Source of the DNA: Acidimicrobiia bacterium
GTDB lineage: Bacteria > Actinomycetota > Acidimicrobiia > IMCC26256 > PALSA-610
Direction of reading: 5' to 3'
Length of the DNA: 64,000 nt
Assembly (NCBI GenBank): GCA_027494135.1
Contig: JAOSJK010000012.1
Coordinates: 546,795 to 610,794, forward strand
Below are positions 10,079 to 52,185 of this stretch, piece after piece (the first letter of the stretch is position 1; every line of letters starts with the position of its first letter). The position numbers and the translations under genes were made by a program. The notes under the pieces are model-generated. The model was not told the origin of the DNA. It saw only the letters and a list, made by a program, of their open reading frames with translations, and made no database searches.

Positions 10079-12175
10079 ATGGGGGGCACCGACGCGGCGC
10101 GGCCGCACACCAACCGGTCGCGCAATCGGCGTCGCACATCGACTCCCTCCCGCAGGCGCTCGCCGGCACCGCCCCCCCAAGACCTCCAGAGGATCGCCGG
10201 GCGTGCCCTGAGATGGTTCGGCTACGCGCTGCTGGCGCTCCTATTCCTCTCGGTGCTGGAGCGCCTCTCCTACTCGGGGCGCATACTCCCGGGCATCAGC
10301 GTCGACGGTGTCAGCGTGGCGGCCGAGGGAGAGAGATCCGCCTACGCCGAGATCGCGGACCTCGCCCGCGACCTCGAGAGGAGCCCGATCGAGGCCCGCG
10401 CGGGCGAGACCGACCTCTCGGCGGATCCCACCACCTTCGACCTCCAGGTCGACGAGGTCGCCACGCTCCGGGCGGCGCGACGGGCCGGCCGTAGCCGCAA
10501 CCCACTGGAGCAGATGGCGGGGACCGTGCTGAGGCGCTTCCGCTCGGACCGGGTGCCACTCACCGTCTCGTACGACGAGCGGGGCATCGAGGGTGTCCTC
10601 GACGGCTGGATCAGCGAGACCTCTGCCGGAGTCGGCGAGGGGGGGCTCCGCTTCGAAGGGACCACCGTCGTCGCGGTCGAGCCCAAGTCGGGGGTCGGCA
10701 TCAGGCGCGACCAGGCCCGCGAGATGATCGACGCACTCCTCCGAAGCCCTTCGCGAAGGCGCCTCGACCTGCCCGTCGGCCGGATCGAGCCGCGCCTCGA
10801 CGCCGCGGCCGTGGATCTCGCCGCAGACGAGGCGCGGGAGATCCTGGCGGAGCCCTACGTGGTAGTCGCCGACGGGACCACGATCACGATCACCCCGGAG
10901 CAGGTCGTCACTTCGCTGGAGACGGAGATAGACGACGATCGACTCGTCCTCCGCGTGAACCCACTCACGCTCGCTCAGTCGCTCGGCGACAGCGTCGACT
11001 CGTTCGCACAGGCCGCCGTGGACGCGCGATTCGAGGTGGGCTCCGACGGCACCGTCTCGGTTGTGCCGTCACAGACCGGGCGTTCGCTCGACTTCGCGAA
11101 GATCGCCGAGGAGATCGTCCGAGTCAATCGGCGCATCGATGCACCACTCGTCGACGTGGAACCCGAGCGCGACACCCAGTGGGCGGAATCGCTCGGAATC
11201 GAGCGTCAGGTGTCGTCTTTCACAACAGAGCACCCGGCGGGGCAGTCCCGCGTCACGAACATCCACAGGGCGGCGGACCTACTCAACAACTGGGTCATCG
11301 AGCCCGGCGAGGTCTTCTCCTTGAATGAAGCAGTCGGACCCCGCACCGCCGAACGCGGATTCGTCACGGCACCCGTCATCTACGGCGAGTTCACCGAGGA
11401 CTACGGCGGCGGCGTGAGCCAGCTCGCAACGACGTTCTTCAACGCGGTCTTCTACGGCGGCTACGAGGACGTGACGCACAAGCCGCACTCCGTCTACATA
11501 TCGCGATATCCGATGGTGGTCGAGGCGACGGTCAGCTACCCGAACCTGGACCTGAAGTTCCGCAACGACACCGAAGCCGGGATCCTCGTACGCACCGGGT
11601 ACACGGAGTCGGCGATAACGGTCACCTTCTACGGAGACACGCAGGGGCGCACCGTCACGAAGGAGGGCCCGAACATCCTCGAGGAGCGCGCCATCGAGAC
11701 AGAGTACGTCGACTGGCCGATGCTCCCCGTCGGCGAGGAAGACGAGATCGACAGCGGGCACACCGGCTACACGGCGGAGGTGTTCCGGATCATCAAACGC
11801 CCCGGGCAGGAGCCCGAGCGTCAGCGGTTCGTCTGGAGCTACCGCATGCTCCCCCGCAAGATCCTGCGCGGGACGATGCAACCGACCACTACGACGAGCA
11901 CCACGGACCCGACGAGCAGCACGACCAGGGGGACCCGGCCTCCCACCACCACCGCCTCGGGGCCGGCGACGACCTCCCCGGCCACGACGACCCCCGGTAC
12001 GACGGCTCCGCCCCCTGACCCCCCTCCGCCGTCGCACCGCCCCGGCTCTCGCCCTCGTCGAGACGGCGCTCAAGTGGCCCGGATGAACGGGCCGATACAC
12101 CCCGTAGGCGCCGTCACCGTCACCGACGTCGCCGCCACCGCCCATCACCGACCCGGGGTCGCATGCGTCAGGTAA
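10079..12175 (+). CDS. VanW-family protein with an N-terminal TM anchor and a Thr/Pro-rich C-terminal tail
   Basis: ATG at 10079 within ORF 9815..12175. The VanW core shows GEVFSLNEAVGPRT, GGGVSQLATTFFNA and YPNLDLKFRND. The last ~60 codons are low-complexity, so the 3' end is uncertain. Confidence 0.8.
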   Translation: MGGTDAARPHTNRSRNRRRTSTPSRRRSPAPPPQDLQRIAGRALRWFGYALLALLFLSVLERLSYSGRILPGISVDGVSVAAEGERSAYAEIADLARDLERSPIEARAGETDLSADPTTFDLQVDEVATLRAARRAGRSRNPLEQMAGTVLRRFRSDRVPLTVSYDERGIEGVLDGWISETSAGVGEGGLRFEGTTVVAVEPKSGVGIRRDQAREMIDALLRSPSRRRLDLPVGRIEPRLDAAAVDLAADEAREILAEPYVVVADGTTITITPEQVVTSLETEIDDDRLVLRVNPLTLAQSLGDSVDSFAQAAVDARFEVGSDGTVSVVPSQTGRSLDFAKIAEEIVRVNRRIDAPLVDVEPERDTQWAESLGIERQVSSFTTEHPAGQSRVTNIHRAADLLNNWVIEPGEVFSLNEAVGPRTAERGFVTAPVIYGEFTEDYGGGVSQLATTFFNAVFYGGYEDVTHKPHSVYISRYPMVVEATVSYPNLDLKFRNDTEAGILVRTGYTESAITVTFYGDTQGRTVTKEGPNILEERAIETEYVDWPMLPVGEEDEIDSGHTGYTAEVFRIIKRPGQEPERQRFVWSYRMLPRKILRGTMQPTTTTSTTDPTSSTTRGTRPPTTTASGPATTSPATTTPGTTAPPPDPPPPSHRPGSRPRRDGAQVARMNGPIHPVGAVTVTDVAATAHHRPGVACVR

Positions 12176-13561
12176 GTCCTCGTCCGTGGAGCCGACGATC
12201 TCGTAGCCTCCCACGTAGAGCGACATTCGCCCTGGCCGTCGTCACGCTCAGCGCGACCCTGGCTGCCCTGCCCACCTCCGAGCGACCGGCCTCGGCCGGC
12301 ACGACCGTCGTCGACGCCCGGCTGTACGCGCCCACCAGCAAGACCCCGTCGGTCCGTGTCGCCGGGATCGGCATACACCCGGATGGTCGCGGCTACTGGC
12401 TCGCCGCCGCCGACGGCAGAGTCCTCAGCTTCGGCTCGGCGGTCCACAGTGGTCCCACCTCGAAGATGCGGAGTCGCGGCCGCGTCGTCGATATCACGCA
12501 CACGCCGAAGGGCAACGGCTACTGGCTCGCGACGTCGACCGGCAAGGTCCGAGCCTACGGAACGGCACGCAGCTACGGGAGCGTCGCCACCACCGACCTC
12601 GACGCGCCGATCGTGGCGATCGCCGCGACTCCGACCGGCAGGGGCTACTGGCTCGCAGGCCGCGACGGCGGTGTCTTCGCGCTCGGCGACGCACGGTTCC
12701 ACGGGTCGGCCCGCAGCCTCGGCGTGCAGACACGGATCGTCGGGATCGCTCCGAGTCGGAGAGGTGGTGGCTATTACCTCGCATCCGCCGACGGCGGCGT
12801 CTACGCCTTCGGCGACGCGCGCTTCCACGGCTCCGCGACGCGCTACAAGCCCGACTCCTCGGTGACCTCGATCGCACTCAGTCGTACCGGGCGCGGCTAC
12901 TGGCTGGCGACTCGCAACGGCAGCGTCTTCGCGTTCGGCGACGCCCCGTACCTCGGCGGTCTCGGAGGTCGCTGCCCCGACGTCCCCGTCGCAGCGATAT
13001 CAGGCGGCCCCTTGGTCCGGGGCTACTGGATCTCGCTCACGAACGGCGGGGCCTTCGCCTTCGCTCCGGGCAACGGCGGAAAAGGGAGGTGCGGCGGCAC
13101 CCGCACACAACGCGCAGCGCGCGACATCTTCATGCAGGCAGATGCAGAGCGCGCCGCCCGGGGCCTGCCCGCGCTCACGTGGGACGCTCGACTCGCGCGG
13201 CACGCACGTTCATGGAGCAACGAGATGGCCCGAAGCGGGTTCCGGCACAGCGACCTCACACCTCTCATCGCCGGCTCTCCCCCGGTTCAACTCGGTAGCG
13301 GAGAACATCGCCTCAGGTCGCGGCCCCGGGGTCACCTCGGCCACGATGCACGCCATGTGGCTGCGCTCCGACGGGCACCGCGCGAACATGCTCCACCCCG
13401 GCCTCGAGGCAATGGGCGTCGGAGTCGTATGCGGTCCGGACGGAACCCTCTGGGCCACTCAGAACCTCGGCCGGTACTACACGTCGGGTCCCGGCCCAGG
13501 GTCGACGACGCCACCCGCGGGAAACCAGTCGTCGTACGCAGGCAGACCCGTCTCCTGCTGA
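12163..13561 (+). pseudogene. Secreted six-blade repeat protein fused to a CAP/SCP/PR1-like domain; one frame break
   Basis: It has a signal-like N-terminus and six ~40-aa repeats (GYWLxxxDGxVFAFGDAxFHGS). The CAP domain is split between ORF 12163..13707 and ORF 13142..13561 at the C5 run 13279-13283. Confidence 0.7.
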
Positions 13562-13622
13562 GGGATAGCCCCCGGAGCTCGCTGAAGGTGCCGGTGCTGC
13601 GGCCTCGGGTCAGCCACGCTGC

Positions 13623-14081
13623 TCAGCCGCGCTGCACCTCGATCCGCGACACCTCCCCCCGCGTGGTGTCGAGCGGCATCCGAACCTCGAGAATCCCGTC
13701 CTTGTAGGTGGCCTTCACGTCGCTCTCGTCGGCGTCGGGCGGGAGCTGCACCACGCGGGAGAACCTGCCGTAGCGGAACTCGCTGCGATAGCGACCCTTC
13801 TCCTCGCTCTTCGTCTCTTCGCGCCGCTCGACGTCGAGCTCTAGCGTGTGGTTCCTCACGTGGATCCGGACGTCCTTGTCGGGGTCGATCCCGGGCATCT
13901 CCGCGCGGACGACCAGCTCGTCGCCCTCCACCTGCTCCTCGACCCTCATCCCCGACTCGACCTCGTCCCAGTGCAGCAGCGACGGCCAACCGCGGGGCCT
14001 GTCGAAGAGCCTCCCCAGCAGAGGTTCCAGCCAGTCGGACCTGCTCTTCTCGATCGACGACTCGCTCATGTCAACTCCCAT
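13623..14081 (-). CDS. Hsp20/alpha-crystallin small heat-shock protein
   Basis: Intact 152 aa with an alpha-crystallin domain (VRAEMPGIDPDKDVRIHV..., ATYKDGILEVRMP). An alternative ATG at 14069 has a GGGAG RBS. Confidence 0.9.
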   Translation of the reverse strand: MGVDMSESSIEKSRSDWLEPLLGRLFDRPRGWPSLLHWDEVESGMRVEEQVEGDELVVRAEMPGIDPDKDVRIHVRNHTLELDVERREETKSEEKGRYRSEFRYGRFSRVVQLPPDADESDVKATYKDGILEVRMPLDTTRGEVSRIEVQRG

Positions 14082-14187
14082 CTACCCACTCCCGGCCCGG
14101 CGCTCCGAGCCCGAACACTCACTCTTCTCTGCCCCGACGATCGCGCCACTCGCCGATCGGAGAAAGTGCCCTTCGCGCAGCGGGCCG

Positions 14188-14202
14188 GGGACCAATGTCA
14201 CC
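14188..14202 (+). promoter_or_regulatory. GGG-N6-GTCACC box A (DosR-box-like)
   Basis: Sequence GGGACCAATGTCACC. It sits in the 260-bp divergent region between hsp20 (start 14081) and the Zn-ribbon ORF (start 14342). Confidence 0.5.
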
Positions 14203-14341
14203 CGAGGCCGACTCTCTCCGGTGCGCCGTGTCCTCCGCGGCCCAGCCCCCTCAGGCGGCACCGGACCGCCCATTCGGGGCGTTCGGCCCTGTGCAGGCCC
14301 AAGGCGCCGCAGGTACGTTCTATACGACCAGGGAGGTCTGC

Positions 14342-14620
14342 ATGAGCACCATCCCGAACGCGCGGCCGGTTAGCGCTCCGAGGCTGGGGACGCTGGTGCG
14401 CTGTCCCGAGTGCCACTCCACGGAGCTCGAGGTCGTGCTCGACGGCTGCAACGTCAACTTCTACTGCGCCTCGTGCATCCGGTGCTGGCACATCGAGCTC
14501 AACCGGGTCGTGAGGATCGACCCGGCGACCTGCTACGGGTGCGCGCACGTCAATGAGTGCTCTGCGCGATTCGCGTCGGACCACCGGGCCGAGATCGAGT
14601 CATCGCCGGTCGGCGCGTAG
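14342..14620 (+). CDS. Small Cys-rich (zinc-ribbon-like) hypothetical protein
   Basis: ATG at 14342 is preceded by a GGGAGG RBS. The 92-aa product has CPEC...CASCIRC...CYGC...C motifs. The ORF-track start at 14195 lies in junk sequence. Confidence 0.6.
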   Translation: MSTIPNARPVSAPRLGTLVRCPECHSTELEVVLDGCNVNFYCASCIRCWHIELNRVVRIDPATCYGCAHVNECSARFASDHRAEIESSPVGA

Positions 14621-14685
14621 GGGATCCCCACCGCATACCTCGTTCGCCGTGGTTCCGCTCGGGGTGTTGCGTCACGCCCGGCGCG

Positions 14686-15466
14686 TCATGCAGGGGTCGG
14701 CACCTCCACGACCGGCAACAGCAGCACGGGCACCGGGGACGAGGAGAGAAGCGCACGCACGACGAGTGCGCGTCCGGGCGCCAGATCGCGACCCCATCCG
14801 ACGGCCACGAGATCCGCGTGCACCTCTGGAGACGACATCACGCACAACCTCGGCGGGGTTGCCGACCCTCAGCTCAAGCCTCAGCCCCTCGCTCTCGACG
14901 GGGGAGAACCTGTCGAGGAACTCCTCGGTCCACACCTCGGTGTCGTAGACCGCCGAGTCGCTGAATGCGGGCAGCGAGGACGTCTCGAAGACGTGCAGGC
15001 CGATCAGCTCGGGACCGTCGAGCGCCACAACGGGACCCAGCAGAGCCCGCAGCGCGCGGGTCGTCGAACCGCGGCCGTCGAGAGGTACCAGGACGCGCTC
15101 GACCGGGTCGACCTGTGTCACGGCCGGCGACACCACCAGGACCGGCTTGTCGACCGCCCGGATCAGCTCGAGAGCGACGTGCCCGGCCGGCTGCGGCCCC
15201 GTAGGCAGGCCACGGCAGCCCACCGCCACCGCGACGACGTCGGCATCAGTCGATGCCTCGACGATGCACGCGGTGGGATCGCCCTTCATCGCGCGGAGGG
15301 GTAGGCCCGCTACACCCGCCACCCCACCAGCCGTCTCTCCCGACCCGTTCTCGTGTACGTGGAGCGCGACGACATCGGCATCCAGAAGGAGCGCGAGGTC
15401 CCCGGCCGCATTGGCGACGCAGCGCGCCGCCGCCGAGTCGTCCAGAGCCGCCAACACGATGGCCAT
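14686..15466 (-). pseudogene. Tandem universal stress protein (2x USP domain); one frame break near the 3' end
   Basis: ATG at 15466 (MAIVLAALDDS...). After ...GNPAEVVRDVVS, a shift near 14833 restores EVHADLVAVGWGRDLAPGRALVVRALLSSSPVPVLLLPV with a stop at 14686. Confidence 0.8.
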
Positions 15467-15468
15467 CG

Positions 15469-18400
15469 TTACCCCTCTCTGAGCCGCGCAGCGCCGCGCG
15501 CGGCGTCGGGGAGCGCGAACTCGCTCACTCCCGCCCCCAAGTCTGCAACCTCGCCCGCGACCTCCACCCGCGCGCCTCCATCGGCGGTAAGACGGACCGA
15601 ACCGGGCTCCACGCGCACGCGAATCGCCGTGCCGCGGTAGCGGACGCGAACGTCGAGCGCGCTCCACGCCGTGGGCAGCCGAGGGTCTACAACGAGACGG
15701 TCGTCCCTCGCGCGCAGCCCGGCGAATCCGAACACGAGCGCCTGCCAGACGCTCCCCATCGCCGCGAGGTGCACGCCGCCGGCACCCGTCGCGGTCAGGT
15801 CATCGAGATCTATGCGCGCCGCGAGCCGCAGCGCCGCGACCGCGCCGTCCGTCATGCCGGCTCTAGCGAACAACGACGCGTGGACACCTGGTGACAGCGA
15901 CGAGCCGTGAGCCGTTCGCGGCTCGTAGTACTCGAGGTTCGGTACCAGCGAGTCGGGGGCCACCTCGTCGGGCACGAGGTGATGGAGCATCAAGACGTCG
16001 GCCTGCTTCACGACCTGCGAGCCCCGGACGCGCTCCCGCCCCAGCAGCAGGTCGGCCGTGATCGGTCGGCGGGGCGCAACCTCGGCGATGATCAGTGGCT
16101 CCAGGCCGTAGAAGCCTGCGAACTGCTCGTAGATGCCGGTGCGGCCGTCGTAGCCGTCGACCAGCGACTCGGCAAGATCCAGCCAGTGGCGCCGTTCGTC
16201 GCCGGACACCCCCGCACACGTTTGCGACACCTCCGCAGCGCGCCGGAGGTTCCAGCGCGCCATGACATTCGTGAACGCGCTGTCGTCGACCGGCTCGTGA
16301 TACTCGTCGGGACCGATCACCCCGTAGAGGTGCCCGGCCCCCGTGGTGTCGCGGCGGATGCGCGACGCCCAGAAGCGTGCCGTCTCTGCGAGCAGCTCGC
16401 AACCTGGGCCGGCGGCGAACTCCTCGTCACCGGTCCAGTCGATGTACAAGGCGGCCGCCCACGCCACCTGCGCCGTGATGTGCAGCTCGTCCTCTCCGGT
16501 GCGGATGGGCACCACCTGGCCCGCCCGGTCGCGTCCCGACCTGGGAGTCACGTCGTCGCCGCCGTCGGCCGACTCCCAGGGGAATCGGGCACCCGCAACG
16601 CCCGCCGCTCTCGCGGCATCGCGGGCCGTTGCAAGACGGCGGACCCGGTACTCGAGCATCGCCCGCGCCGCGCCCGGATGGGTGGCAGCGAGGAAGGGCA
16701 GGACGAAGGTGTCGGCGTCCCAGAACACGTGGCCGCGGTATGCGTGACCGGTGAGCCCACGCGCCCCGACCGCAGCCTCTCCGTGGTCGGCGGCGGAGCC
16801 CATCAGATGGAAGAGCGCGAGGCGCGTAGCTAGCTGGAGATCCTCGTCTCCCTCGATCGCGATATCGGCGCTCTCCCACCGAGCGGCCCACGCGCGACGA
16901 TGCTCCGCGAGCAGCACCTCGTAGCCGACCGACTCCGCGCGCTCGACGAGTGCGATCGACTCATCTCGCCGATCACCCCTCGCGCCCCTCGTGTACGCAA
17001 CGAACCGATCGACCGAGCCGGCGCCCCCGTCCGCTCCTCGATCGCCGCCGCGGTGACGGATTGGCGGGAGCCGCTCACCGTCATCCAGTGAACGCTCCCC
17101 TGGCTCCCCTCGGCTGCGCCGCCGCGCCCGGGAGGCACGAGCGGAGTGGAACCTTCGAGGCCCCTCCCTTCGCCGGCGGCACGCAGCACCGCCGTCCCGG
17201 GTCGCGCCAGCGACGAGAAGCGCAGGGCCGTGAATCCGCCCCTCGGGCCTTCGACCTCGTCGCCGAGCAGGCCGGCGCGCAGGTCGAGGACCCTGCGGAG
17301 CCGCTCGTCGGGCGCCAGGGCACCTGGCACCCGGTCCCAGAGTGGCGCGGCGAGGAGGTCGATCTGCGGACCGTCGCCGTCGTAGGCGCCCGCGACCAGG
17401 ACACTCGGGGTCGCCTCGTCGTGCCCGGAGGACGGGGGCGCCCGACGTTCCCATGAAGCCGTCGGCGATCGTCATCAGCGCCTCCCGTGACCTCTCACGG
17501 TTCGCGCCGACCCCGTCGACCACCATCGTCCAGCCGACTGTCTCGCCGGCCCGTGGCACCGCACGGGCTACGCGGCGCCGCACCTGATCGGCGAGGACCG
17601 CGCAGAACACGTCCGGACCTCCCGCGAGGTGGAGCACACCGTCGGGGACTCCTCTGGGCTCGACGCCGACCGAGAAGGCCGTCGCACCGCTCGCCTCCCC
17701 CACGAGCATGAGCGAGTCGCTCCCCGCCACACCCCCCCAGCGGACCGATCTCGTCCCCTGCGACGAGGACCAGTCCGGGAGCGACTCCGCGCCGCCACAG
17801 GTCTCCGAAGACGTACCGCGTGGAGTCGGACTTGTCGGTGAGCCCGATCTCCACGTGCTTCGCGTCGCTCGTCACACGCGGATCAGCGACACCTGATTCG
17901 CGCGCGCTCTGTAGAGCGAGGTCCACCACCTCCGGAAGACCTGCGAGTTCGGCGTCGCGGAGCCGCGCCTCCACCGCGGCGAGGAGCTCGTCGATGTGCG
18001 CCTTCGGTGGGTCCTCCCACTCCGGCAACGGGATGAGATCGATCTTGCGCCGGTTCAGCCGCTGGGAGACGATCGTCGCCTCGAGGCCGTGCTCCGCGAG
18101 CCTGGCCACAGTGAGTTCTGCTGCGCGGTCGAGGGCGGCCTCCTCCTCGGGCGTCGCCTCCCGCCGCTCCACGACTACCGGACCGTCGGGCCCGACCTCG
18201 AAGGTCTCCGACCCGCGGTTGAGGGCCAGTAGGAGCCGGCCCGGCCCGGTCGGTCGAGCGCAGAGCTGACCGTCGATGTTGCCGACGTGCGTGCCGCTGA
18301 CGACGACGACGTCGGCACCCAGCGAGCAGAGCTCCTCGACAAGGCCCCTGACCCGCGACGCGTCGGCGTCACGATCGGGTACCGCGGTACCGTCCCAGTC

Positions 18401-18508
18401 GAATACGACGGCCTCGAACCTCCGCTGCAACGGCGGCGGCAGGTGCAGACCCACGGCGACATCGCCCCCGGAGCCGCTCTGGAGGTACGCGGCGCCTACG
18501 GGTATCAA
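15469..18508 (-). pseudogene. HAD-phosphatase + GH65 glycoside hydrolase/phosphorylase fusion (OtsB1/Rv2006-like architecture); three frame breaks
   Basis: The HAD N-terminus (FDWDGT) is in ORF 17495..18508. GH65 is in ORF 15469..17730, with a middle piece in ORF 16830..17330. Breaks lie in the C7 run 17732-17738, G5 run 17434-17438 and C5 run 17024-17028. Confidence 0.8.
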
Positions 18509-18514
18509 GTCACC
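18500..18514 (+). promoter_or_regulatory. GGG-N6-GTCACC box E
   Basis: Sequence GGGTATCAAGTCACC. It spans the receiver stop codon (18510-18512) and the 5' end of the HAD-GH65 ORF. Confidence 0.4.
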
Positions 18515-19035
18515 CGTTCACGCGAAGGGCCGAGAGCGCCCTCGAGGCCGTCGCCGGCTCCACGGCGAGTGCCGCGCCGAGCGCCGCACGCAGTGCGCCG
18601 GCCGTGACGGGCTTGTGGATCACGTCGTCTACGCACACGTCGGGAGCGAGACGGGAGATGCTGGTCGCATGGGTCAGCGCCACGACACGCGCCGGGCGTG
18701 GGCCGCGCGAGAGGCGCCGCAGCAGGTCGACCCCGCCTGCGCCGGGGAGGAACACCTCCAGGAGGAGCAGGTCGACCCGCTCCCTCTCGAGGTGGTCGAG
18801 AGCCTGGTACACGTCGGGGGAGTCCGACGACTGCGACCCCCACGTCGAGAACGGACCGGACCGCTATCGCGGTTCCGGGATCATCGTCGACGACCAGGAC
18901 GTGGGGCGACCGGAGGGCCGATTCGACTGCGGCGGGGCCTACTCTCCGGCCTCGCAGCAGCACCGCCCCATGGCCTCCCGCCTGAGCGATCGCCAGCGCG
19001 TCTGGCGCCAGTGCATCGTTGACTCCGGTGCGCAA
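18510..19035 (-). pseudogene. Stand-alone response-regulator receiver domain protein (no output domain); one frame break
   Basis: HVLVVDDDPGTAIAVRSVLDVGVAVV is in ORF 18505..19035. It continues as SDSPDVYQALDHLERERVDLLLLEVFLPG...IHKPV in ORF 18510..18812. The break is near 18830. Confidence 0.7.
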
Positions 19036-19152
19036 AGCCCACCCCTCCCCCTGCGTGCGTCTGTCGCTCGAGGGTAGTCACGGCTCCCCTTTCCCACGGC
19101 CGCCGCATTCCGCCGTCGTCACAACCTAAGGGCGTCGGGCCCCGAGATGGCA

Positions 19153-19167
19153 GGGCCATTCGTCACC
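19153..19167 (+). promoter_or_regulatory. GGG-N6-GTCACC box D
   Basis: Sequence GGGCCATTCGTCACC. It lies 118 bp upstream of the receiver gene start (19035) and just downstream of the 21-bp hairpin. Confidence 0.45.
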
Positions 19168-19195
19168 CCTGCGCCGTCGAATGTCGCCACCCGAC

Positions 19196-19242
19196 CACGA
19201 GCGTCGATAGACCACAATATGTGTGGTCTATCGACGCTCGTG
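19196..19242. terminator. Perfect 21-bp inverted repeat with a 5-nt AT-rich loop (intrinsic-terminator-like or operator)
   Basis: Sequence CACGAGCGTCGATAGACCACA-ATATG-TGTGGTCTATCGACGCTCGTG. The repaired DUF1918 stop codon (19228-19230) lies in the right arm. There is no U-tract on either side. Confidence 0.55.
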
Positions 19243-19426
19243 CCGGTCGGGGGTCACGTGGGCGTCGGAGCCGGGGGAAGAAGATCGACTCGTGGCCGTC
19301 GTCCCAGCGGATGCGGTAGTGGACCGCTCCGCCCTCGTCGAGGACCTCGAGCACCTCGCCGCTGCGGCGGGGGTCCCCCAGGTGCGGCCCGTCGACGACG
19401 ATCTCGTCACCCGCGCTGGCATGCAT
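19228..19426 (-). pseudogene. DUF1918-domain protein (Rv0569-like); one frame break
   Basis: ATG at 19426 has a GGGAGG RBS. The product reads MHASAGDEIVVDGPHLGDPRRSGEVLEVLDEGGAVHYRIRWDDGHESIFFP. Removing one base from the G5 run 19273-19277 gives GSDAHVTPDRHERR* as the C-terminus. Confidence 0.7.
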
Positions 19427-19499
19427 GTCGGACCTCCCTAGTGCCACGGCCTCTTCATTGGCCACCCCGAGCCTCCCCGCGCGGGCGCGTCACGGCAAG

Positions 19500-19514
19500 G
19501 GGTCCAAAGTCACC
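19500..19514 (+). promoter_or_regulatory. GGG-N6-GTCACC box B
   Basis: Sequence GGGTCCAAAGTCACC. It sits in the divergent region between DUF1918 (start 19426) and the APH+AAA gene (start ~19670). Confidence 0.5.
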
Positions 19515-19669
19515 TGCGCCTCGGACGGTCGTCGGAGCGGCTCTCCGCTGCTCCACTCGCCGCGAGGACCTACCCTGGCCCGGACCACGGCCGGGGCCGC
19601 GTTCGAACGGCCGGTTGACTGCTGCCGGCGGAGAGTCGTAGGCGCGCCGGTCGGCAGGCCGCCTGAAGC

Positions 19670-21235
19670 GTGCACGCAGCCGGCGCGTGGTGGACGGAGA
19701 GCGAGGGGGAGGCACGGGTGGAAGACGGGGCGATCGTCGAGCCGGACACCCGCGCCGCGCTTGTCGGCTGGCTCCTCCGGCGCGGCGACGCCCCGGAGAT
19801 CGTCGAGACGCACGTCTCCGTGCTCGGCTTCCAGGGCGACCGCGCTTACAAGGCGAAGAAGGCCGTCTGCTTCGACTTCCTCGACCTGTCCACCTCCGAG
19901 CTGCGGGCCGCCGCCTGCGAGCGCGAGGTCTCGCTCAATCAGAGGCTTGCGCCCGACGTCTACCTGGGCACCGTCGACATCACCGACGCCGACGGCCTGG
20001 TCGTCGAACGAGCCGTCGAGATGCGGCGGATGCCCGCCGCCCGCCGTCTCGCGACGCTGGTGCGGAGCGGAGTCGATGCCGGCCCCTGCATCGACTCCGT
20101 CGCCGAGACCGTCGCCCGATTCCATGCGCTCGCCGAACGGTCGGAGACCATCTCCGCCACTGCCCGGCGCGACGCGATCGCCGACCTATGGGAACGGGGC
20201 TTCGCCGAGACGCGCCCCTTCGTCGGGTCCGTGCTCGACGCCGAGGTCGCCGACCGCGTCGAGCTGCTCGCACGCCGCTACCTCGCCGGGCGCGACCCGC
20301 TCTTCGAGTCGCGGATCGTCTCAGGGCGCATCTGCGACGGCCACGGCGACCTACTCGCCGACGACGTCTTCTGCCTCGACGACGGCCCGCGCATCCTCGA
20401 CTGTCTCGAGTTCGACGACCGACTCCCGGAGCGGCGACGTGCTGGCCGACGTCGCGTTCCTCGCCATGGACCTCGAGCTACTGGGGCGGCCCGACCTGGC
20501 GAAGAGGTTCATCGACCGCTACCGCGCTCACACGTCCGACACCTGGCCGGCCTCGCTCGAGCACCACTACATCGCGTATCGAGCCCACGTTCGCGCCAAG
20601 GTCGCGGCCTGCGCCACGGTCAGGGTGATCCGGCGGCCGCGGACCGCGCACGGGTGCGCTTCGCTCTCGCCGCAGCCCACCTCGAGGCGCAGCGCGTGCG
20701 CCTGGTGCTCGTCGGTGGTCTTCCCGGTACCGGAAAGTCGACCCTCGCAGCTGCGCTGGCCGCCCACACCGGTGCGGCGCTCGAGCGAAGCGACGTGACG
20801 CGCAAAGCGATGGCGGGCCTCGCCGCGACCCACCGCACCGGCGATCGCGAGTCCGAGGGGCTCTACGCTCCCAACGTCACCGACGCCGTCTACCGAGGCC
20901 TCCTCGACACGGCACGCGGGCGCCTCGCCGGCGGCGAGAGCGTGATCCTCGACGCGTCGTGGGCCGGCGCCGCCCACCGTCGCGCCGCCGAGCGGATCGC
21001 GCGCGACACGGCGTCCGATCTGTTGCAGATCCGCTGCGAGGCGATGTCGGATGTGGCGGCGGCGAGGATCTCGCTGCGCGCCGCCGAAGGCGCCGACCCG
21101 TCGGACGCGTCTGTTGCTGTTGCGACCGCGATGGCGCAGAGATTCGAACCCTGGCCCGACGCCGCCACCCTCGACACCACCTCGCTCTCCCCCGAGGCGA
21201 CGCTCGAGCGCGCCGTCGGACTCCTGCCCCCCTGA
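19670..21235 (+). pseudogene. Phosphotransferase (APH-like) + AAA/P-loop kinase fusion (Rv2004c-like architecture); two frame breaks
   Basis: The N- and C-terminal parts are in ORF 19670..21235 (GLPGTGKST Walker A). The middle (SGDVLADVAFLAMDL...HHYIAYRAHVRAKVA) is in the frame of ORF 19425..20798. Breaks lie near 20425 and 20615. Confidence 0.7.
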
Positions 21236-21463
21236 CACGCAGGCCGCGGGACGCGGGACGCAGGACGCGACCCCGAGCCGAGCGAGCACCCGCAGCGCCC
21301 TCGGGGACGACGGACCACGCCGCGCGGACCATCGGCCCTGTCATCGTTCCCGGCGGTTCGGGACCCTGAAGGAGAGCCTCGCGCCCGTCGAGCGGTCGAT
21401 GTGCGGTAGACGAGCGGTCGGCATGCGGGCGACGCCCGCCAACGAGGATGCTGGGAGGCACCT

Positions 21464-23770
21464 GTGGGAGATGCAGCGAGTGGCGCCACCGACATCCTGT
21501 GGTTCGGCGACCTGTCCGCAAGCGACGTGCCGGTCGCGGAGGCAAAGGGGCAAACCTGGGCGAGCTGACCGGGGCGGGCATGCCGGTGCCGCCCGGATTC
21601 GTCGTCGCGGCACCCGCGTACCTCGGCTCCATGGATGCCGGAGCGGTCCGGGCGGAGATCGCGCAGGTCGCCGCCGATCTCGACGTCGACGACCCGACCG
21701 AGCTCGCCACCGGCTCGGCACGCCTGGCAGAGATGGTCCGCAGCGCCGGCCTGCCGCCGGAGCTCCGGCGCCGGGTGCTCGACGCGTACCGCACGCTCGG
21801 CGACACGGCATCCGTCGCAGTCCGCTCATCTGCGACCAGTGAAGACACCGCCGACGCGTCGTTCGCCGGCATGAACGAGACGTTCACCAACGTCGCGGGC
21901 GACGACGCTCTCATCGACCGGATCGTCGACTGCTGGGCGTCGCTCCACGGCCAGAGGGCCGTCGCATACCGGCGCGGACGGGGCGTGGTCGAGGAACCCG
22001 CCATCGCAGTGGTCGTGCAGAAGATGATCGACTCCGAGCGGTCAGGGGTCATGTTCACCGCCGACCCGTCGACGGGCGACAGGGAACGGATGGTGATCGA
22101 GGGGGCGTTCGGACTCGGGGAGGTGGTCGTCGGCGGCCAGGTGGAACCCGACACCTACACGGTCGCCAAGGAGGGCCCACGCCTCCTGACCGTTCGCGTC
22201 GGCCTGAAGACGCACTTGATCGAGCGTGGACCCGACGGCACCGATCGGCGCGTCGACCTCTCGCCCGAGGACGGCGGTCGCCGCGCCCTCACAGACGAGG
22301 AGGTCCTGGATCTCGCACGCATCGGTGCGAGGGTCGAGTCGCACTACGGACGCCCGCAGGACATCGAGTGGGCGATTGCCGGCGGGCAGATCTTCATCGT
22401 GCAGAGCAGACCCATCACGACCCTCACCGAGGTGCCGGGCGAGGAGGCCGCCACGACGTCCGGTGCGCAGCTCATTCGCGGCCTCGCTGCCTCCCCCGGG
22501 CTGGCTGCCGGCCGGGTTCGCGTGGTGCGCGCGGTCGCCGACGGAGATGCGCTCCTGCCCGGCGAGATCCTCGTCGCGGAGATGACGAACCCCGACTGGG
22601 TCCCCGTGCTCCGCCGCGCCGCAGCGTTGGTCACCGACGGGGGCGGCATGACCTGTCACGCCGCGATCGTCAGCCGTGAGCTCGGAGTCCCGTGCGTCGT
22701 CGGCACGCGGAATGCGACGCAGTTGCTGCGCGACGGCGAGCTGGTCACCGTCGACGGGCGCCGTGGCGCGGTCTTCGAGGACGACAACGTCGCCGCGCTC
22801 GCGCCGGCGGCGCACGTAGGCGGCTCAGAGGATGATCGACGCGAGCACCCCCACATCGATCGAGCCGCTCGGGACTCGCCTCTATGTGAACCTCGCCATC
22901 GCAGACCACGCCGAACGCGTCGCGGCCCTGCCCGTCGACGGCGTCGGCCTGCTCCGGGCCGAGTTCATGGTCACCGACGCGCTAGGTGGTCGTCACCCCA
23001 GAGACCTCCTCGCCCACGGCGGCCGCGACGAGTTCCTCGCGAAGATGGAGGCGTCGCTCCTGCGGATCACGTCGGCATTCGCCCCGCGCCCGGTGGTCTA
23101 CAGGACCATCGACTTCCGCAGCAACGAGTTCCGCGGGCTCGCGGGGGGCGACCAGTTCGAGCCGGTCGAGGAGAACCCCATGATCGGCTACCGCGGCTGC
23201 TACCGCTACGTGCGCGAGCCCGACCTGTTCGCACTCGAGTGCGAGCTCCTCGCGCGGGTTCGGGATCAGACTCCGAACCTCCACTTGATGATCCCGTTCG
23301 TCAGGACGCTCTGGGAGCTCGAGGCGTGCCTGGAGCTAGTCGATGCGAGTCCGCTCGGCCGCCAGCACGGCCTGCATCGCTGGGTCATGGCGGAGGTACC
23401 GTCGGTTGCATACCGGATCCCCGAGTACGCGGCGCTCGGCATCGACGGCGTCTCCATCGGATCGAACGACCTCACGCAGCTGATGCTGGGCGTCGACCGC
23501 GACTCCGAGATCTGCTCCGACCTCTTCGACGAGTCCGATGCTGCCGTCCTCGACGCGATCGGCCGCATCATTGCGGCATCACGCGCCGCCGGGATCACTT
23601 CGTCGCTCTGCGGCCAGGCGCCCTCCAACAGACCCGAGTTCGCGGAGCACCTGGTGAGATTCGGCATCACCTCGATCTCCGTCAATCCCGATGCCGCCGA
23701 CCGCGCTCGTCAGGTGATCGGATCGGCCGAGAGACGCCTCCTGCTCGACGACGCCCGACACGGGGTCTAG
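21464..23770 (+). pseudogene. PEP-utilising enzyme (PEP synthase / pyruvate,water dikinase-like); two frame breaks
   Basis: A GTG at 21464 gives [17 protein letters not shown] shift near 21535 leads to [11 protein letters not shown]...SSATSEDT...[20 protein letters not shown] shift near 22830 leads into the PEP-binding TIM-barrel domain (ORF 22832..23770). Confidence 0.8.
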
Positions 23771-23778
23771 GGCTGCCG

Positions 23779-25163
23779 ATGCCGTTCAGAGACCGGCGCG
23801 ACGCAGGCAGACGGCTCGCTGCACTGCTCGGGCACCTCGCGTCGGAGCACCCCGTCGTGCTCGGGCTGCCGCGGGGTGGTGTGCCTGTCGCCTTCGAGGT
23901 CGCCCGCGCGCTCGACGCGCCTCTCGACGTCATAGTCGTCCGTAAGCTCGACTCCCGTACCAGCCGGAGCTGGCCATGGGCGCGATCGGCGAAGACGGCG
24001 TGCGGATCGTCAACGACGACCTGCGGCGCCGGGCCGGCGTCAGCGACGCCGACCTGAGTGCTGTCGAGCGTCGCGAGAGGTCCGAGCTCGAGCGTCGCGC
24101 GGAGCGCTTCCGCAGCGGCCGGGGGCCCGTAGCGATCGCCGGCCGGACGGTAATCGTCGTCGACGACGGCCTGGCGACGGGATCGACCGCGCTCGCCGCC
24201 CTGCAGGTCGCCCGCGCGCACGGCGCATCGCGCGTGGTGCTCGCCGTGCCGGTCGCGCCACCCGAGACGCTGCGCGAGATGGCACGTCACGCCGACGACG
24301 TCGTCTGCGTAGAGGCTCCGGCGAGCATGATGGCGATCGGGCCCTGGTACGACGACTTCCGTCAGACCACAGACGAGGAAGTGGTTCAGCTCCTGGCCTC
24401 AGCTCGAGGCTCCTCCGCCGGGATCTACCCGGCAGACGTCGAGAGCGACGAGTCGGAGACGGGCGCACGCCTGGCGGGCGGCGAGGAGGCTGGGCGCAAC
24501 GAGGAGGTCGACCTGGTCGTGGGCCGCGCGAGGCTCGGAGCGCACCTCGCGGTCCCGGCGCGGGCCAGAGGGCTCGTGGTCTTCGCTCACGGCAGCGGCA
24601 GCAGCAGACAGAGCCCACGCAACAAGCACGTCGCGTCGGTCCTAGCCGGAGCCGGTCTCGGCACCCTCCTGTTCGACCTGCTCACCGAGTCCGAGTCGCT
24701 CGATCGCGCCAACGTCTTCGATGTACGGCTCCTTGCGTCGCGGCTCTCCGGTGCGATCGACGCGTTGCGCTCGGACCCCGGGCTCCGCCCGTTGGCGATC
24801 GGAGCCTTCGGAGCGAGCACCGGGGCCGCCGCCGCGCTGTGGGCGGCCGGCGAACCGTCGAGCCCCATCGCCGCCGTGGTCTCCCGCGGCGGCCGACCGG
24901 ACCTCGCCGGCGCCCGCCTGGCGTACGTGCGCGCCCCCACCCTGCTCATCGTCGGCGGCGCCGACCTCGACGTGCTCGACCTGAACCGGGATGCCGCCCG
25001 CCATCTACGCTGCCCGCACAGGGTCGAGGTGGTGCCGGGGGCCACGCACCTCTTCGACGAACCCGGAACCCTCGCTGCCGCAGCATCTCTCGCACGCGAC
25101 TGGTTCGTCGCGCATCTTCCGAACCCGAGCCTCCCGTCCGGCGGAGGCGGCAGAGGCACCTGA
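23779..25163 (+). pseudogene. Phosphoribosyltransferase + dienelactone-hydrolase-like alpha/beta hydrolase fusion (Rv0571c-like architecture); one frame break
   Basis: ATG at 23779 ([14 protein letters not shown]...[10 protein letters not shown]). A one-base gap near 23949 joins it to ORF 23976..25163 (VIVVDDGLATGST, then VVFAHGSGSSR...GATHLF). Confidence 0.75.
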
Positions 25164-25257
25164 GCCCACCGCGCCCCACGCGGCCCGCCCGGCCGCGCTA
25201 CGAATGGGATCGCGGCACCGACGGCACTCTCGGCGCATACCCGGCGACCCGGACAGG

Positions 25258-25272
25258 GGTGACCTAGTGCCC
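25258..25272 (-). promoter_or_regulatory. GGG-N6-GTCACC box C (reverse orientation)
   Basis: The minus strand reads GGGCACTAGGTCACC. It sits in the 217-bp gap between the PRTase fusion and the CBS-M50 protease gene. Confidence 0.45.
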
Positions 25273-25314
25273 TGGGCGGGGAGCGTCCCGCGCGGGCAAG
25301 ATTATGTCCCTGAT

Positions 25315-25353
25315 GACCTACACAACTGCGACCTACACAACTGCGACCTACAC
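25315..25353. repeat. 15-bp tandem direct repeat x2.6 (GACCTACACAACTGC)
   Basis: Two exact copies plus a 9-nt partial third copy. The patch is relatively AT-rich and lies 28-66 bp upstream of the likely protease start. Confidence 0.9.
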
Positions 25354-25380
25354 GCCGGCGACCACACCGGTGGCAGGGAG

Positions 25381-26526
25381 TTGATCCAGGGCGTCCCTGT
25401 CGGGCGGATCCTGGGGATCCCGCTCCGCCTCGACTGGAGCCTCGGCATCATCTTCTGGCTCCTCTCGTGGGGCCTGGCGACCGGGGCGTTCCCCGACCTG
25501 GCGCCGGGCTCGTCGGAGAGCACCTACTGGGTCGCCGGCGCGTTCACGGCGGCTCTCTTCCTCGCCTCTCTCCTGACCCACGAGATGAGCCACTCCCTCG
25601 TGGCGCGCAGCTACGGGATCGAGGTCGACAACATCACCCTCTGGGTCTTCGGAGGGATAGCAACGCTGCGCGGAGAAGCAACCGAGCCGCGCGCCGACTT
25701 CCGGATAGCGATAGCCGGACCGCTGGCGAGCCTGGCCATAGCCGTCTTCTGCCTCGGCATTGCGGGGGCTCTCGACCTGGCCGGCGCGCCCGACCTGCCG
25801 ATCACGATGGCGGTCTGGCTCGGCTCGATCAACGGGATGCTCGCAGTCTTCAACCTGGCGCCTGCCGCGCCGCTCGACGGCGGCCGTATCCTGCGCGCAT
25901 GGCTGTGGAAGCGCAGGGGCGACCGCGCCAGCGCGGCCCTGAGCGCTACTCGCGCCGGTCGCTTCTTCGGGCAGGTGCTCATCGCTGCGGGCCTGGTCCA
26001 GTTCCTGATCGGCGCGGGCGTCGGGGGGCTCTGGCTCGTCTTCCTCGGCTGGTTCGTGATGACTGCGGCGCGCGGTGAGGAGACTTCGGTCCGGATAGCC
26101 CACGATCTCACCGGCGTCCGCGCCGGCGATGTCATGACACCGGAGCCAGTCGTCGCGCCCGCGACCCTCACCGTGGCCGAGCTCCTAGACGACTTCGTGC
26201 TGCAGCAACGCTGCTCGGCATTCCCGCTCGTCGAGCCCGACGGCGAGGTGAGCGGCCTCGTGACGCTCACCAGGCTCAAGTCGCTCTCTGCGGACGCCCG
26301 CCGGACGATGGCCGTGCGCGACGTGGCGTGGCCCCTCGCGCAGGTACCGACCGCTACGCCATCCGATCCACTGGTAGACCTCGTCGCACGGCTCGGCGAA
26401 GCCGGAGACGGCCGCGCACTGGTGTTCGACGGCACGAAGCTAGTCGGAATCATCTCACCGACCGACGTGTCGAGGGCGCTGCAGATCGCCGAGCTACGTC
26501 GCCGCGGCGAGATGCGACCGAGATGA
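25381..26526 (+). CDS. M50 site-2 metalloprotease with tandem C-terminal CBS domains (Rv2625c-like)
   Basis: HEMSHSLVA (HExxH) and NLAPAAPLDGGRIL motifs, then two CBS repeats. The start is uncertain. TTG 25381 gives the family-typical N-terminus MIQGVPVGRILGIPLRLDWS; GTG 25267 is the alternative. Confidence 0.8.
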   Translation: MIQGVPVGRILGIPLRLDWSLGIIFWLLSWGLATGAFPDLAPGSSESTYWVAGAFTAALFLASLLTHEMSHSLVARSYGIEVDNITLWVFGGIATLRGEATEPRADFRIAIAGPLASLAIAVFCLGIAGALDLAGAPDLPITMAVWLGSINGMLAVFNLAPAAPLDGGRILRAWLWKRRGDRASAALSATRAGRFFGQVLIAAGLVQFLIGAGVGGLWLVFLGWFVMTAARGEETSVRIAHDLTGVRAGDVMTPEPVVAPATLTVAELLDDFVLQQRCSAFPLVEPDGEVSGLVTLTRLKSLSADARRTMAVRDVAWPLAQVPTATPSDPLVDLVARLGEAGDGRALVFDGTKLVGIISPTDVSRALQIAELRRRGEMRPR

Positions 26527-26559
26527 CCGAGTATGAGTCCAGCCGACGAAGGAGACTTC

Positions 26560-27653
26560 ATGCTGCCGTCCGAACTGGAGAAGCTCGCTCGCACACACGC
26601 GTTCCCTGCGGTGACGCTTCTGCTTCCGACACAGCGTGAGCGGCCCGGCAACGCGGAGGACCGGCTCCGTCTCCGCCATCTCGTAGACCGTGCCACGGAA
26701 GAGCTGCTCCGAGGGTTCGACCGACGCGAGGTCGCCCCGTTGGTGGAGCGCCTGAACACCGCCGCTGCCGAGGTCGATTTCTCGCATCCGGGCTCCGGCC
26801 TCGCGATCCTTGCCACCACCGACGAGTCACACGTGTTCGCGGTGCCGTTCGCGCTGCCCGAGCGCGTCGTGGTGAACGAGCGCTTCGCGGTGCGCGACCT
26901 CCTCGTCGGCGTGCATCGGATGCCGCGCTATCGCGTGCTCGTGCTGTCGGCGAAGAAGAGCCGGCTGCTGGAAGGCTCGGGAACGGACCTAGCCGAGTCT
27001 CGATCCGGAGCGTTCCCGGTCGAGGTCGAGCCGCCCCGCGAGGAGGACACCCCACACAAGGATCTGCCCATCCACGAGTCCCAGCGAGAAGAGGGCTACC
27101 GCTTCGTGTTCCGCGCCGTTGACCGGGCACTCGACGAGATCGATGCCGCCAGTCCTCTGCCGGTAGTTCTCGTCGGAGTCGAGCGCGACCTCTCGTTCTT
27201 CCGTGAGGTCACACGCCACGGACGCTCCATAGTCGGCCAGGTGGCAGGTAACCACGTCGCCGATTCGCCTGCGGAGCTCGGCAGGCTCGTCGCTCCCGCG
27301 ATCGAGGCGCACACGGCAGCCGAGGCGTCCGCGGCCGTGGCCGAGCTCAGGGAGGCCGTCGGAACGGGACGTGCCTCGAGCGGCATCAACGACGTGTTCG
27401 CGCTCGCTCACGAAGGGCGTGGTAGGAGGCTGGTCGTCGAGGAGGACTACCGCTATCCTGCTCACATTTCCGGGGACGGCCGGTCCCCGTAGGCGACGCC
27501 GACGCGCCTGCCGGCGGCGTCGAGGGAACCGACGTGGTCGACGCGGTCGAGGTCGTCACGGAGGCCGTGCTCTCCACCGGGGGCGAGATCATCTTCGTTC
27601 CGACGGGCGCCCTCGCTCAGCACGGTGCCATCGGCCTACTGCTCCGCTACTGA
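26560..27653 (+). pseudogene. eRF1/Pelota-like (bacterial archaeo-eukaryotic release-factor-like, Rv2629-like) protein; one frame break
   Basis: ATG at 26560 has an AAGGAG RBS. ORF 26533..27492 stops at 27490. A +1 correction in the C4 run 27485-27488 continues as PVGDADAP...GGEIIFVPTGALAQHGAIGLLLRY* (stop 27651-27653). The family call is by pattern only. Confidence 0.55.
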
Positions 27654-27754
27654 GTGCTCCGCAGTCGACCGGTCGGTTGCACGGGGAGCGGCACCGCCTC
27701 GCAACCGAAGGATCTACTCTGCGGGGTCACACGGCTCTCCGAGAGGCTCTGCGC

Positions 27755-28927: not shown

Positions 28928-29391
28928 CGAAGCGGACGATCCGTGACCTGCTCGGCGATCATCCGTTCTTCGCCGACCTCGACCCGGAATACCTCGACCT
29001 GATCGCCGGCTGCGGGCAGAACGTGGTGTTCGCAGCCGATACGCCCATCGCCCGGGAGGGTGAGCCGGCTGACTTCTTCTATGTGCTGCGCGAAGGCCGC
29101 GTCGCCCTCGACGTCCACGAGCCGGCCCGGGGGCCGATCGTCGTGGCGACACTCTCTCCGGGCGACGTCCTCGGGTGGTCGTGGCTCTTCGCGCCGTACC
29201 GCTGGCGCTTCGACGTGCGTGCGCTGGAGCCCGTCCGCGCCGTGGCGCTCGACGGCGTCTGCCTGCGCGGCAAGTGCGACGCCGATCCCCGCCTCGGATA
29301 CGACCTGGTCCACCGATTCGCCGGAATCATGGTCGCCCGTCTCGAGTCGACCAGGCTGCAGCTCCTGAACGTGTACGGCTGGCCCGCGTGA
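28924..29391 (+). CDS. Cyclic-nucleotide-binding (cNMP/Crp-type) domain protein embedded in the hydrogenase operon
   Basis: The TTG at 28924 overlaps the upstream stop (TTGA). The 155-aa product shows FFADLDPEYLDLIAG...REGEPADFFYVLREGRVAL...GDVLGWSWL. There is no HTH output domain. Confidence 0.7.
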   Translation: MTKRTIRDLLGDHPFFADLDPEYLDLIAGCGQNVVFAADTPIAREGEPADFFYVLREGRVALDVHEPARGPIVVATLSPGDVLGWSWLFAPYRWRFDVRALEPVRAVALDGVCLRGKCDADPRLGYDLVHRFAGIMVARLESTRLQLLNVYGWPA

Positions 29392-47563: not shown

Positions 47564-47613
47564 GGGACCTTGGACCCTGCCCGTCGGAGCCGCAACGCCC
47601 GAACCTTGGAGTC
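47564..47613. promoter_or_regulatory. Two related 14-bp boxes (GGGACCTTGGACCC and CGAACCTTGGAGTC) upstream of carbamate kinase
   Basis: Boxes at 47564-47577 and 47600-47613, 36 bp apart, in a 233-bp gap. The reverse complement of the first, GGGTCCAAGGTCCC, shares GGGTCCAA and the following GTC with box B and resembles the DosR core GGGAC-N4-GTCCC. Confidence 0.4.
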
Positions 47614-52179: not shown

Positions 52180-52185
52180 CCCGTC

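Follow-up and report, generated by a model that had tools for sequence, protein, structure and literature searches.

The closest described relatives of the system discussed here are the hypoxia and dormancy regulons of Mycobacterium tuberculosis and Streptomyces coelicolor, which are read by the NarL-family regulators DosR/DevR and OsdR (SCO0204) respectively. The operators of M. tuberculosis, the Dev boxes, are 18-20 bp long and lie an experimentally determined 33-34 nt from the start of transcription (PMC3177182, Table 1), and every promoter has at least two of them in helical phase (PMC3177182); the secondary boxes are known to be very degenerate. Substitution of G5 or C7 costs 90% and 93% of DevR binding respectively, and changes at G3 or G4 are less severe; the listed regulon promoters include those of hspX, Rv2005c-Rv2004c, Rv2006/otsB, Rv0571c, Rv2626c-Rv2625c, Rv2628-Rv2629 and ctpF (PMC3177182). 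The OsdR consensus, AGGGCCGATCGGCCCT, conforms well to that of M. tuberculosis DevR according to its authors, and predicted OsdR sites include those of PPDK (SCO0208), USP genes and an ADH gene (PMC5069765). No description of a DosR regulon in the Acidimicrobiia was found in the literature searched. Here we describe a set of short, imperfectly palindromic boxes in a dormancy gene island on contig JAOSJK010000012.1 of an uncultured Acidimicrobiia bacterium; the whole stretch analyzed, 64,000 bp with a G+C content of 70.7%, is referred to as the window.

A preliminary description of this DNA had noted a recurring GGGN6GTCACC pattern and its resemblance to the Dev box, for which it quoted the consensus TTSGGGACTWWAGTCCCSAA. 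We conclude that the boxes are very probably operators of the Dev-box type, predicted to be read by a DosR/DevR/OsdR-type NarL-family regulator of a hypoxia/dormancy regulon, and the resemblance is borne out by the gene set, by the match of two boxes (D and B) to an independently derived matrix, by conservation, and by the spacing to a -10-like hexamer, which is that of Dev boxes. The boxes add a further case to a known system and do not point to a new kind of regulator. The predicted site is an imperfect palindrome of 14-16 bp with the class consensus cAGGGcC-N4-GTC(C/A)C. It shares with the M. tuberculosis Dev boxes the GGGNC-N4-GNCCC core, G5 and C7 in each half and an AT-rich center, but differs in its flanks (cA...(C/T) rather than TTS...SAA), in inner bases that are GGGCC more often than GGGAC, and in a distal half that is often GTCAC. 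The OsdR consensus is nearly the same as the strong boxes of the window, such as cAGGGCCGATGGTCCG at PPDK, although the OsdR consensus is written with a symmetric GGCCC half and the distal half here is GTC(C/A)C, with the T found in Mycobacterium. The operators of other NarL/LuxR-family response regulators, such as NarL and VraR, can also be compared: these regulators have the same fold and domain order and bind inverted repeats as dimers, but their half-sites differ in sequence. The boxes and promoter elements are listed below with matrix scores from the motif described further on; offsets are counted from the GGG end of each box.

14188-14202, plus strand: box A, GGGACCAATGTCACC, exact match to GGGN6GTCACC, 107 nt upstream of hsp20; score 7.9
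14276-14289, minus strand: Zn-ribbon box, cAGGGCCGAACGCCCC, about 55 nt upstream of the Zn-ribbon gene; score 14.7
14314-14319, plus strand: -10-like TACGTT of the Zn-ribbon promoter, offset 25 from the box; T-A-C invariant in four genomes
18500-18514, plus strand: site E, GGGTATCAAGTCACC, on the junction of the receiver stop and HAD-GH65 start; rejected
19123-19128, minus strand: -10-like TAGGTT of the receiver-operon promoter, offset 25 from box D
19153-19167, plus strand: box D (primary), cAGGGCCATTCGTCACC, about 76 nt upstream of the operon GTG start (near 19077, minus strand); score 14.2
19174-19187, plus strand: secondary degenerate box, CCGTCGAATGTCGC, 21 bp (two helical turns) distal to D
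19470-19475, minus strand: -10-like GAGGCT of the DUF1918 promoter; A, G, C and T invariant
19500-19514, plus strand: box B, aGGGGTCCAAAGTCACC, 74 nt upstream of the DUF1918 ATG (19426, minus strand); score 12.5
21304-21317, plus strand: secondary box, GGGACGACGGACCA, on the distal side of the PPDK box at a distance of 21 bp; score 6.7 (at -21 from that box)
21325-21338, minus strand: PPDK box, cAGGGCCGATGGTCCG, upstream of the PPDK gene, with GACCCT at offset 24; score 14.9
25258-25272, minus strand: box C, cAGGGCACTAGGTCACC, upstream of the M50-CBS protease gene; score 9.7
47564-47577, minus strand: amino-acid-kinase box, cAGGGTCCAAGGTCCC, about 150 nt upstream of the gene, with GAACCT at offset 24; score 17.4, the top hit of the window
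55567-55581, minus strand: sixth exact match, coding, inside imuA', with a GC-rich spacer; score 10.1; chance

Boxes D and B and those at 14276, 21325 and 47564 appear to be strong sites, and A and C weaker ones.

The exact pattern GGGN6GTCACC occurs six times on the two strands of the window, at the coordinates and on the strands originally given, and rescanning found no others. This raw count is only weakly significant. Dinucleotide-preserving shuffles contain a mean of 1.28 matches and reached six in 1/100 cases; GTCACC is a Val-Thr codon pair, common at this G+C content, and of its 69 occurrences in the window about 3 would be expected to have GGG six bases 5'. As the bare count is only mildly unusual, the case must rest on other evidence. 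Two of the matches do behave as expected of chance. Site E overlaps the receiver stop codon (TCA, 18510-18512) and the HAD-GH65 TTG start (18506-18508), scores 1.7 bits against the independent matrix, is not present at the same junction in the relatives L001, L091 and L092, has no -10-like hexamer at the canonical spacing, and lacks the essential C7 in its proximal half; we regard it as a chance match. The imuA' match similarly has no -10-like hexamer at the box spacing, and two such matches agree with the one to three expected. The claims that the pattern is confined to non-coding junctions and that all five island boxes are real stand for A, B, C and D and fall for E. That the entire recurrence is an accident of a 71% G+C genome rich in GTCACC is very improbable, since this explains neither the conservation of A, B, C and D in relatives, nor their fixed orientation and fixed distance to a -10-like hexamer, nor their agreement with a motif derived from other genomes; for B and D chance can be excluded, and for A and C it is unlikely. 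An Rfam search of positions 13000-26500 at E <= 1 for structured RNA returned one sub-threshold, irrelevant hit only. The GTCACC search was also less complete than supposed, and the rescan adds the related boxes at 14276-14289, 21325-21338 and 47564-47577, which were missed because their right halves are GCCCC, GTCCG or GTCCC.

The motif was learned from 80 loci (L003-L082) in other genomes, gathered around homologues of the Rv2004c-like gene of the island. The most enriched 7-mers in their crude intergenic regions are GGACCTT/AAGGTCC, and expectation maximization (EM) seeded with that 7-mer alone, and run with a capped site fraction, yields cAGGGcCGAAsGTCCC, which matches the OsdR consensus (PMC5069765). 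Other routes to a motif failed: on 370-nt stretches 5' of the Rv2004c-like gene, EM and dyad counting picked up mainly the coding periodicity of the upstream gene, uncapped EM drifted the same way, and the closer homologues P0004-P0007 lie in a different operon (2-oxoacid dehydrogenase) and offer no orthologous intergenic region. In the window the top ten matrix hits include 47564, 21325, 14276, D and B, with scores from 17.4 down to 12.5, against a 95th percentile of 12.2 for the best score in random 320-nt segments; the imuA' hit, C, A and E score lower. Six of the ten best hits are non-genic, compared with 13% of the sequence (binomial estimate ~1e-3). Orthologues of the DUF1918, Zn-ribbon, M50, PRTase, Fer4_22, PPDK and ADH genes in other genomes likewise have high-scoring boxes 30-100 nt upstream.

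The island is also present in three independent relatives: L001, with about 80% DNA identity, L091 and L092. A further assembly, L002, was dropped as an independent relative, being the same organism as the window: it is 99.9% identical to window positions 19217-31233 over 12 kb, with 3 mismatches and 7 indels. The window derives from a long-read metagenome-assembled genome (MAG) and L002 from a short-read assembly, and the indels between them reveal assembly frameshifts in the window. These errors account for the broken APH-AAA and PPDK/PRTase reading frames and for the weakened signal of third-position G+C (GC3) at 14.6-22.8 kb; the breaks in the receiver and HAD-GH65 frames, outside the compared 12 kb, probably have the same cause.

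In four genomes box B, box D and the Zn-ribbon box are invariant blocks inside diverged flanks. The block is GGTGAC-NAAN-NGCCCT for D and GTGAC-YTT-NACCCCTTG for B, and the Zn-ribbon box, kept in L001, L091 and L092 with a TACNNT hexamer 24-25 nt downstream, forms with that hexamer the conserved block GGG...TT...CCCT. A hexamer follows box B at offset 25 in 4/4 genomes (GAGGCT, CAGGCT or GATGCT), and a TAG triplet lies at offset 24-25 from box D in L091 and L092. Two boxes are conserved as a whole in L001 (two genomes each), the PPDK box identically and box C as GGGCCCTAGGTCACC, which scores 13.3. Box A, the weakest of those accepted, reads GGTGAC-ATTG-GTCCC toward hsp20, and its core GTGAC-NTTG-GTC is invariant in L091 and L092 (three genomes in all). 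Reading the sequence for the bases essential to DevR binding shows G5 and C7 in both halves of A, D, B and the boxes at 14276, 21325 and 47564.

All of the accepted boxes have the same orientation, with the cAGGG half toward the regulated gene and the GTCAC half distal to the promoter. Beyond the GGG end a -10-like NANNNT begins at 25 nt for D, B, C (which also has one at 28) and 14276, at 24 nt for 21325, at both 24 and 25 nt for 47564, and at 20 nt for A; five of the seven boxes thus have one at exactly 25 nt, and six of the seven at 24-25 nt. With a per-position frequency of 0.019 for NANNNT, the estimated P for 5/7 at one common offset is ~6e-8, uncorrected for the ~120 offsets examined. 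No NANNNT peak is seen on the opposite side of the window boxes. The same spacing holds at the other loci, where 89/128 boxes scoring >= 15 have a hexamer at 24 or 25 nt, only beyond the cAGGG end, as do 59/92 boxes in loci labelled Acidimicrobiia. Assuming the usual position of the -10 element, the center of the 14-mer would lie near -43 and the edge of an 18-bp box 33-35 nt from the predicted start, close to the published 33-34 nt. No consistent -35 hexamer follows the boxes, and together with their position this fits an activator that substitutes for a -35 element. GGTGAC itself was considered as the -35 of an alternative sigma-factor promoter and rejected, there being nothing -10-like 17 nt downstream. 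The composite of box, spacing and NANNNT is too permissive as a search pattern by itself (7 hits versus 3.3 expected).

Putative secondary boxes occur 21 bp away, about the distance of helically phased tandem boxes, clearly at two promoters, PPDK and D, and weakly at B and the amino-acid kinase; none is detectable at A, 14276 or C. The secondary box at PPDK scores above the 95th percentile of background and is kept in L001. Near D the best position, at +21, scores only 2.0, yet four genomes share the block G-CGAC-T--GA there without change, and in L092 the corresponding box, CGGGGTCGAAGGTCGC, reaches 14.1.

The right half GTCACC also resembles the TCACA of CRP/FNR- or Rex-type sites (TGTGA-N6-TCACA-like), and an xGGGx-N6-TCAC spacing fits the 16-bp CRP-type layout. 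On that view a redox or cyclic-nucleotide regulator would bind the boxes, possibly the island's own cNMP-binding protein, and Crp-like regulators are among the predicted OsdR targets in Streptomyces (PMC5069765). However, the left half is GGG(C/T)C and not GTGA, and it is this non-CRP-like half, cAGGGcC, that is conserved on the promoter-proximal side. The cNMP-binding protein has 155 amino acids (in L001 and L002), cNMP_binding as its only recorded Pfam hit, and a gene inside a hydrogenase operon, and no CRP-type helix-turn-helix was found in the window. We consider this explanation extremely improbable.

The genes next to the boxes are consistent in their predicted functions with operators of the DosR type:

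13623-14081, minus strand: hsp20, alpha-crystallin family (Pfam HSP20, E = 1e-18); putative target of box A
14672-19077, minus strand: operon of orphan receiver, HAD-GH65 (otsB1-like) and USP genes (Pfam), frames broken by indels; putative target of box D
19228-21235, both strands: divergent pair of DUF1918 (minus) and APH-AAA (plus, 19718-21235) (Pfam DUF1918, AAA_33), flanking box B
21463-27650, plus strand: PPDK, PRTase-hydrolase, M50-CBS protease and baeRF-family genes (Pfam, L002 gene calls), downstream of the PPDK box and box C
47725-48645, plus strand: amino-acid-kinase-family gene (Pfam AA_kinase, E = 1.5e-27), downstream of the 47564 box

By Pfam content the island encodes HSP20, a small Zn-ribbon protein, USP, GH65 with an N-terminal extension, an orphan receiver, DUF1918, AAA_33, PEP/pyruvate dikinase, PRTase+DLH (phosphoribosyltransferase-hydrolase), M50+CBS and baeRF proteins, together with a Fer4_22/cNMP/NiFe-hydrogenase operon, a P-type ATPase, an ADH and an ADP-forming acyl-CoA synthetase. 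This gene set is a DosR-type dormancy island. Many of its genes have counterparts among the DevR regulon promoters named at the outset, from hspX to ctpF. In common with the M. tuberculosis regulon it has genes of the hspX, USP and otsB1 kinds, and genes that we take, from domain architecture rather than direct comparison, to resemble Rv2004c (the APH-AAA gene, with box B about 200 nt upstream), Rv0571c, Rv2625c and Rv2629; with the predicted OsdR targets it shares PPDK, USP and ADH genes. The Rv2004c-like protein is 100% identical to P0001, which is encoded on a 1.19-Mb contig of an Acidimicrobiia MAG. The receiver, HAD-GH65 and USP orthologues are intact in L001, L091 and L092. The orphan receiver is the first gene of the box D operon (window 18510-19077, minus strand; L001 6322-6882), and in L001 the protein has 187 amino acids, of which 57-163 form the receiver domain, and lacks an output domain; it could serve as a phosphate sink or connector in the dormancy pathway. 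The hydrogenase operon (27756-32326) consists of Fer4_22, cNMP-binding, NAD-binding, small-subunit and NiFe large-subunit genes, and lacks a strong upstream box in this genome; in other loci, orthologues of Fer4_22 have very strong boxes at -30 to -35 (L011, 20.3; L045, 16.3; L067, 14.1).

Several observations weigh against reading the boxes as Dev-type operators. Neither a DosR/NarL-type regulator nor a GAF kinase is encoded in the 64-kb window or in the 20-kb stretches of L001, L091 and L092; unlike in M. tuberculosis, the regulator gene is not beside the island. Clear tandem boxes are present at two promoters only, compared with at least two boxes at every promoter in M. tuberculosis. The GGG end of box A is not kept, being CCG in L091 and L092, and its -10-like hexamer is at offset 20 and not 24-25. 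The proximal half of box C is GGGCA here and lacks the essential C7, although its L001 orthologue has it. The matrix was built from crude intergenic calls and includes some coding noise, and genic hits such as those at 40472 and 58663 score high. A candidate regulator is known from the same class: proteins 57-61% identical to DosR, found with a DosR query sequence, adjoin the Rv2004c-like gene in five Acidimicrobiales/Acidimicrobiaceae MAGs. One of these Acidimicrobiales proteins has Response_reg and GerE domains and finds its best match in the DevR structure 3C3W (E = 1e-70), ahead of VraR (E = 2e-37) and NarL (E = 2e-30), and the stretch EKTVKNYVS is common to it and DevR.

The preliminary description also held that the right half is invariantly GTCACC and that this suggests a related but distinct specificity. 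The invariance is a product of having searched for GTCACC, the other window boxes ending in GCCCC, GTCCG or GTCCC, and is mostly search bias plus a class-level flavor: GTCAC has a frequency of 0.29 among the promoter-supported boxes of Acidimicrobiia loci, compared with 0.10 among those of other Actinomycetota. A distinct specificity does not follow either, since GTCAC is common in boxes of the class and, as its reverse complement GTGAC, alters G4 only and keeps the G5 and C7 that are essential for DevR binding.

An alternative reading is that the GTCACC boxes form a separate sub-regulon read by another protein or binding mode, such as a DosR paralogue, a heterodimer, or a lineage-specific distal monomer that prefers GTGAC. 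Boxes A, B, C and D do keep the GTGAC half in all the related genomes that were compared (13/13 orthologous instances, in up to four genomes), and at box A it is the best-conserved half, while the Zn-ribbon box is GGG-type (GGGGC or GGGAA) in 4/4 genomes and the PPDK box is CGGAC in both genomes covering it; the A at this position is moreover about three times more frequent in Acidimicrobiia than in other Actinomycetota. Yet the GTCAC and canonical boxes are alike in proximal half, orientation and 24-25 nt spacing to the -10-like hexamer, and 4/7 against the class background of 0.29 is not significant (estimated P ~0.1). The four genomes are related, and shared ancestry explains much of the conservation; the G4 substitution is the less severe kind for DevR binding, and the recognition-helix stretch EKTVKNYVS is identical in the Acidimicrobiales DosR orthologue and DevR. 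A separate sub-regulon is thus unlikely. There is a modest chance, judging from the pattern of conservation, that retention of GTGAC is functionally selected. It is unlikely, but conceivable, that the Acidimicrobiia DosR orthologue reads asymmetric boxes with a distal monomer favoring GTGAC over GGGAC, or that a second NarL-type paralogue sets a sub-regulon apart. If this base is under selection, it could set affinity, binding order or the timing of induction for a subset of the regulon.

Taking the boxes as Dev-type operators, we infer the following scheme. Under low oxygen or redox stress a heme/GAF sensor kinase would phosphorylate the regulator, a dimer of which would bind the box centered about 43 bp upstream of the start and so replace the missing -35 element; at some promoters a second dimer may be recruited to the degenerate box 21 bp further upstream. 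This would activate hsp20, the Zn-ribbon gene, the receiver/HAD-GH65/USP operon, DUF1918 and probably also the divergent Rv2004c-like gene, as well as PPDK, the M50-CBS protease and the amino-acid kinase.

Other elements lie near the boxes. A perfect GC palindrome, CCCGCGCGGG, is present in four copies (19476-19485, 25287-25296, 47661-47670 and, in coding sequence, 10395-10404), three of them in intergenic regions with a Dev-type box and two of these, at B and C, exactly 14 nt to the gene side of the box. L001 has CCCGTGCGGG and CCCGCGCGTG at the corresponding places. A degenerate form of the palindrome is not enriched overall (9 observed versus 6.4 expected), and as a secondary Dev box it fits neither the box pattern nor the helical phase. 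Just downstream of DUF1918, between that gene and box D, a 21-nt perfect inverted repeat with a 5-nt loop (19196-19242) is terminator-like without a T-run; L001, L091 and L092 have a P-type ATPase gene there instead. On the other side of box B, the sequence TCTAC(C/T)CTG is conserved ahead of both the APH-AAA gene and the Fer4_22 operon (19568-19579; L001 near 17885; L002 near 8500), and may represent either a half-box, as a degenerate cAGGGTA, or a -10 element with the sequence TACCCT; TACCCT (19571-19576) as the -10 of the APH-AAA gene misfits the box spacing. In L091 and L092 DUF1918 is paired divergently with a gene for an AMP-binding acyl-CoA synthetase rather than with the Rv2004c-like gene, and the synthetase gene has its own very strong box about 62 bp from box B (L091 1921-1936, CAGGGTCGAACGTCCC, score 20.0; L092 1841-1856, CAGGGTCGAACGTCAC, score 19.0).

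Tandem repeats are present at two of the promoters. Two of 22 nt (21389-21432), CGAGCGGTCGATGTGCGGTAGA and CGAGCGGTCGGCATGCGGGCGA, separate the PPDK boxes from the start codon of that gene. At the other promoter the 15-mer GACCTACACAACTGC, in two full copies and a partial third (25315-25356), separates box C from the conserved LIQGVP with which the M50-CBS protease starts; these copies are in frame, have the potential to encode DLHNC repeats, and are absent from L001. At 48721-55755 an imuA'-like gene, with a weak RecA match, lies beside dnaE2-like fragments (HHH_6, OB fold, DNA_pol3_alpha), several of them with broken frames, in a stretch of raised G+C content (75-78%).

No new regulatory principle is revealed by these boxes. 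Their identification as very probable Dev-type operators extends the DosR/DevR/OsdR dormancy regulon to the Acidimicrobiia, a class made up of uncultured actinobacteria from soil and water, and brings into it genes that are uncharacterized (those of DUF1918, the small Zn-ribbon protein, the orphan receiver, the M50-CBS protease and the baeRF-family protein). Across the Actinomycetota the boxes appear to keep their sequence, their orientation and their distance from the -10 element, and this would provide a simple rule for predicting hypoxia-responsive promoters in MAGs: cAGGGcC-N4-GTCMC, followed after 23-24 nt by NANNNT.

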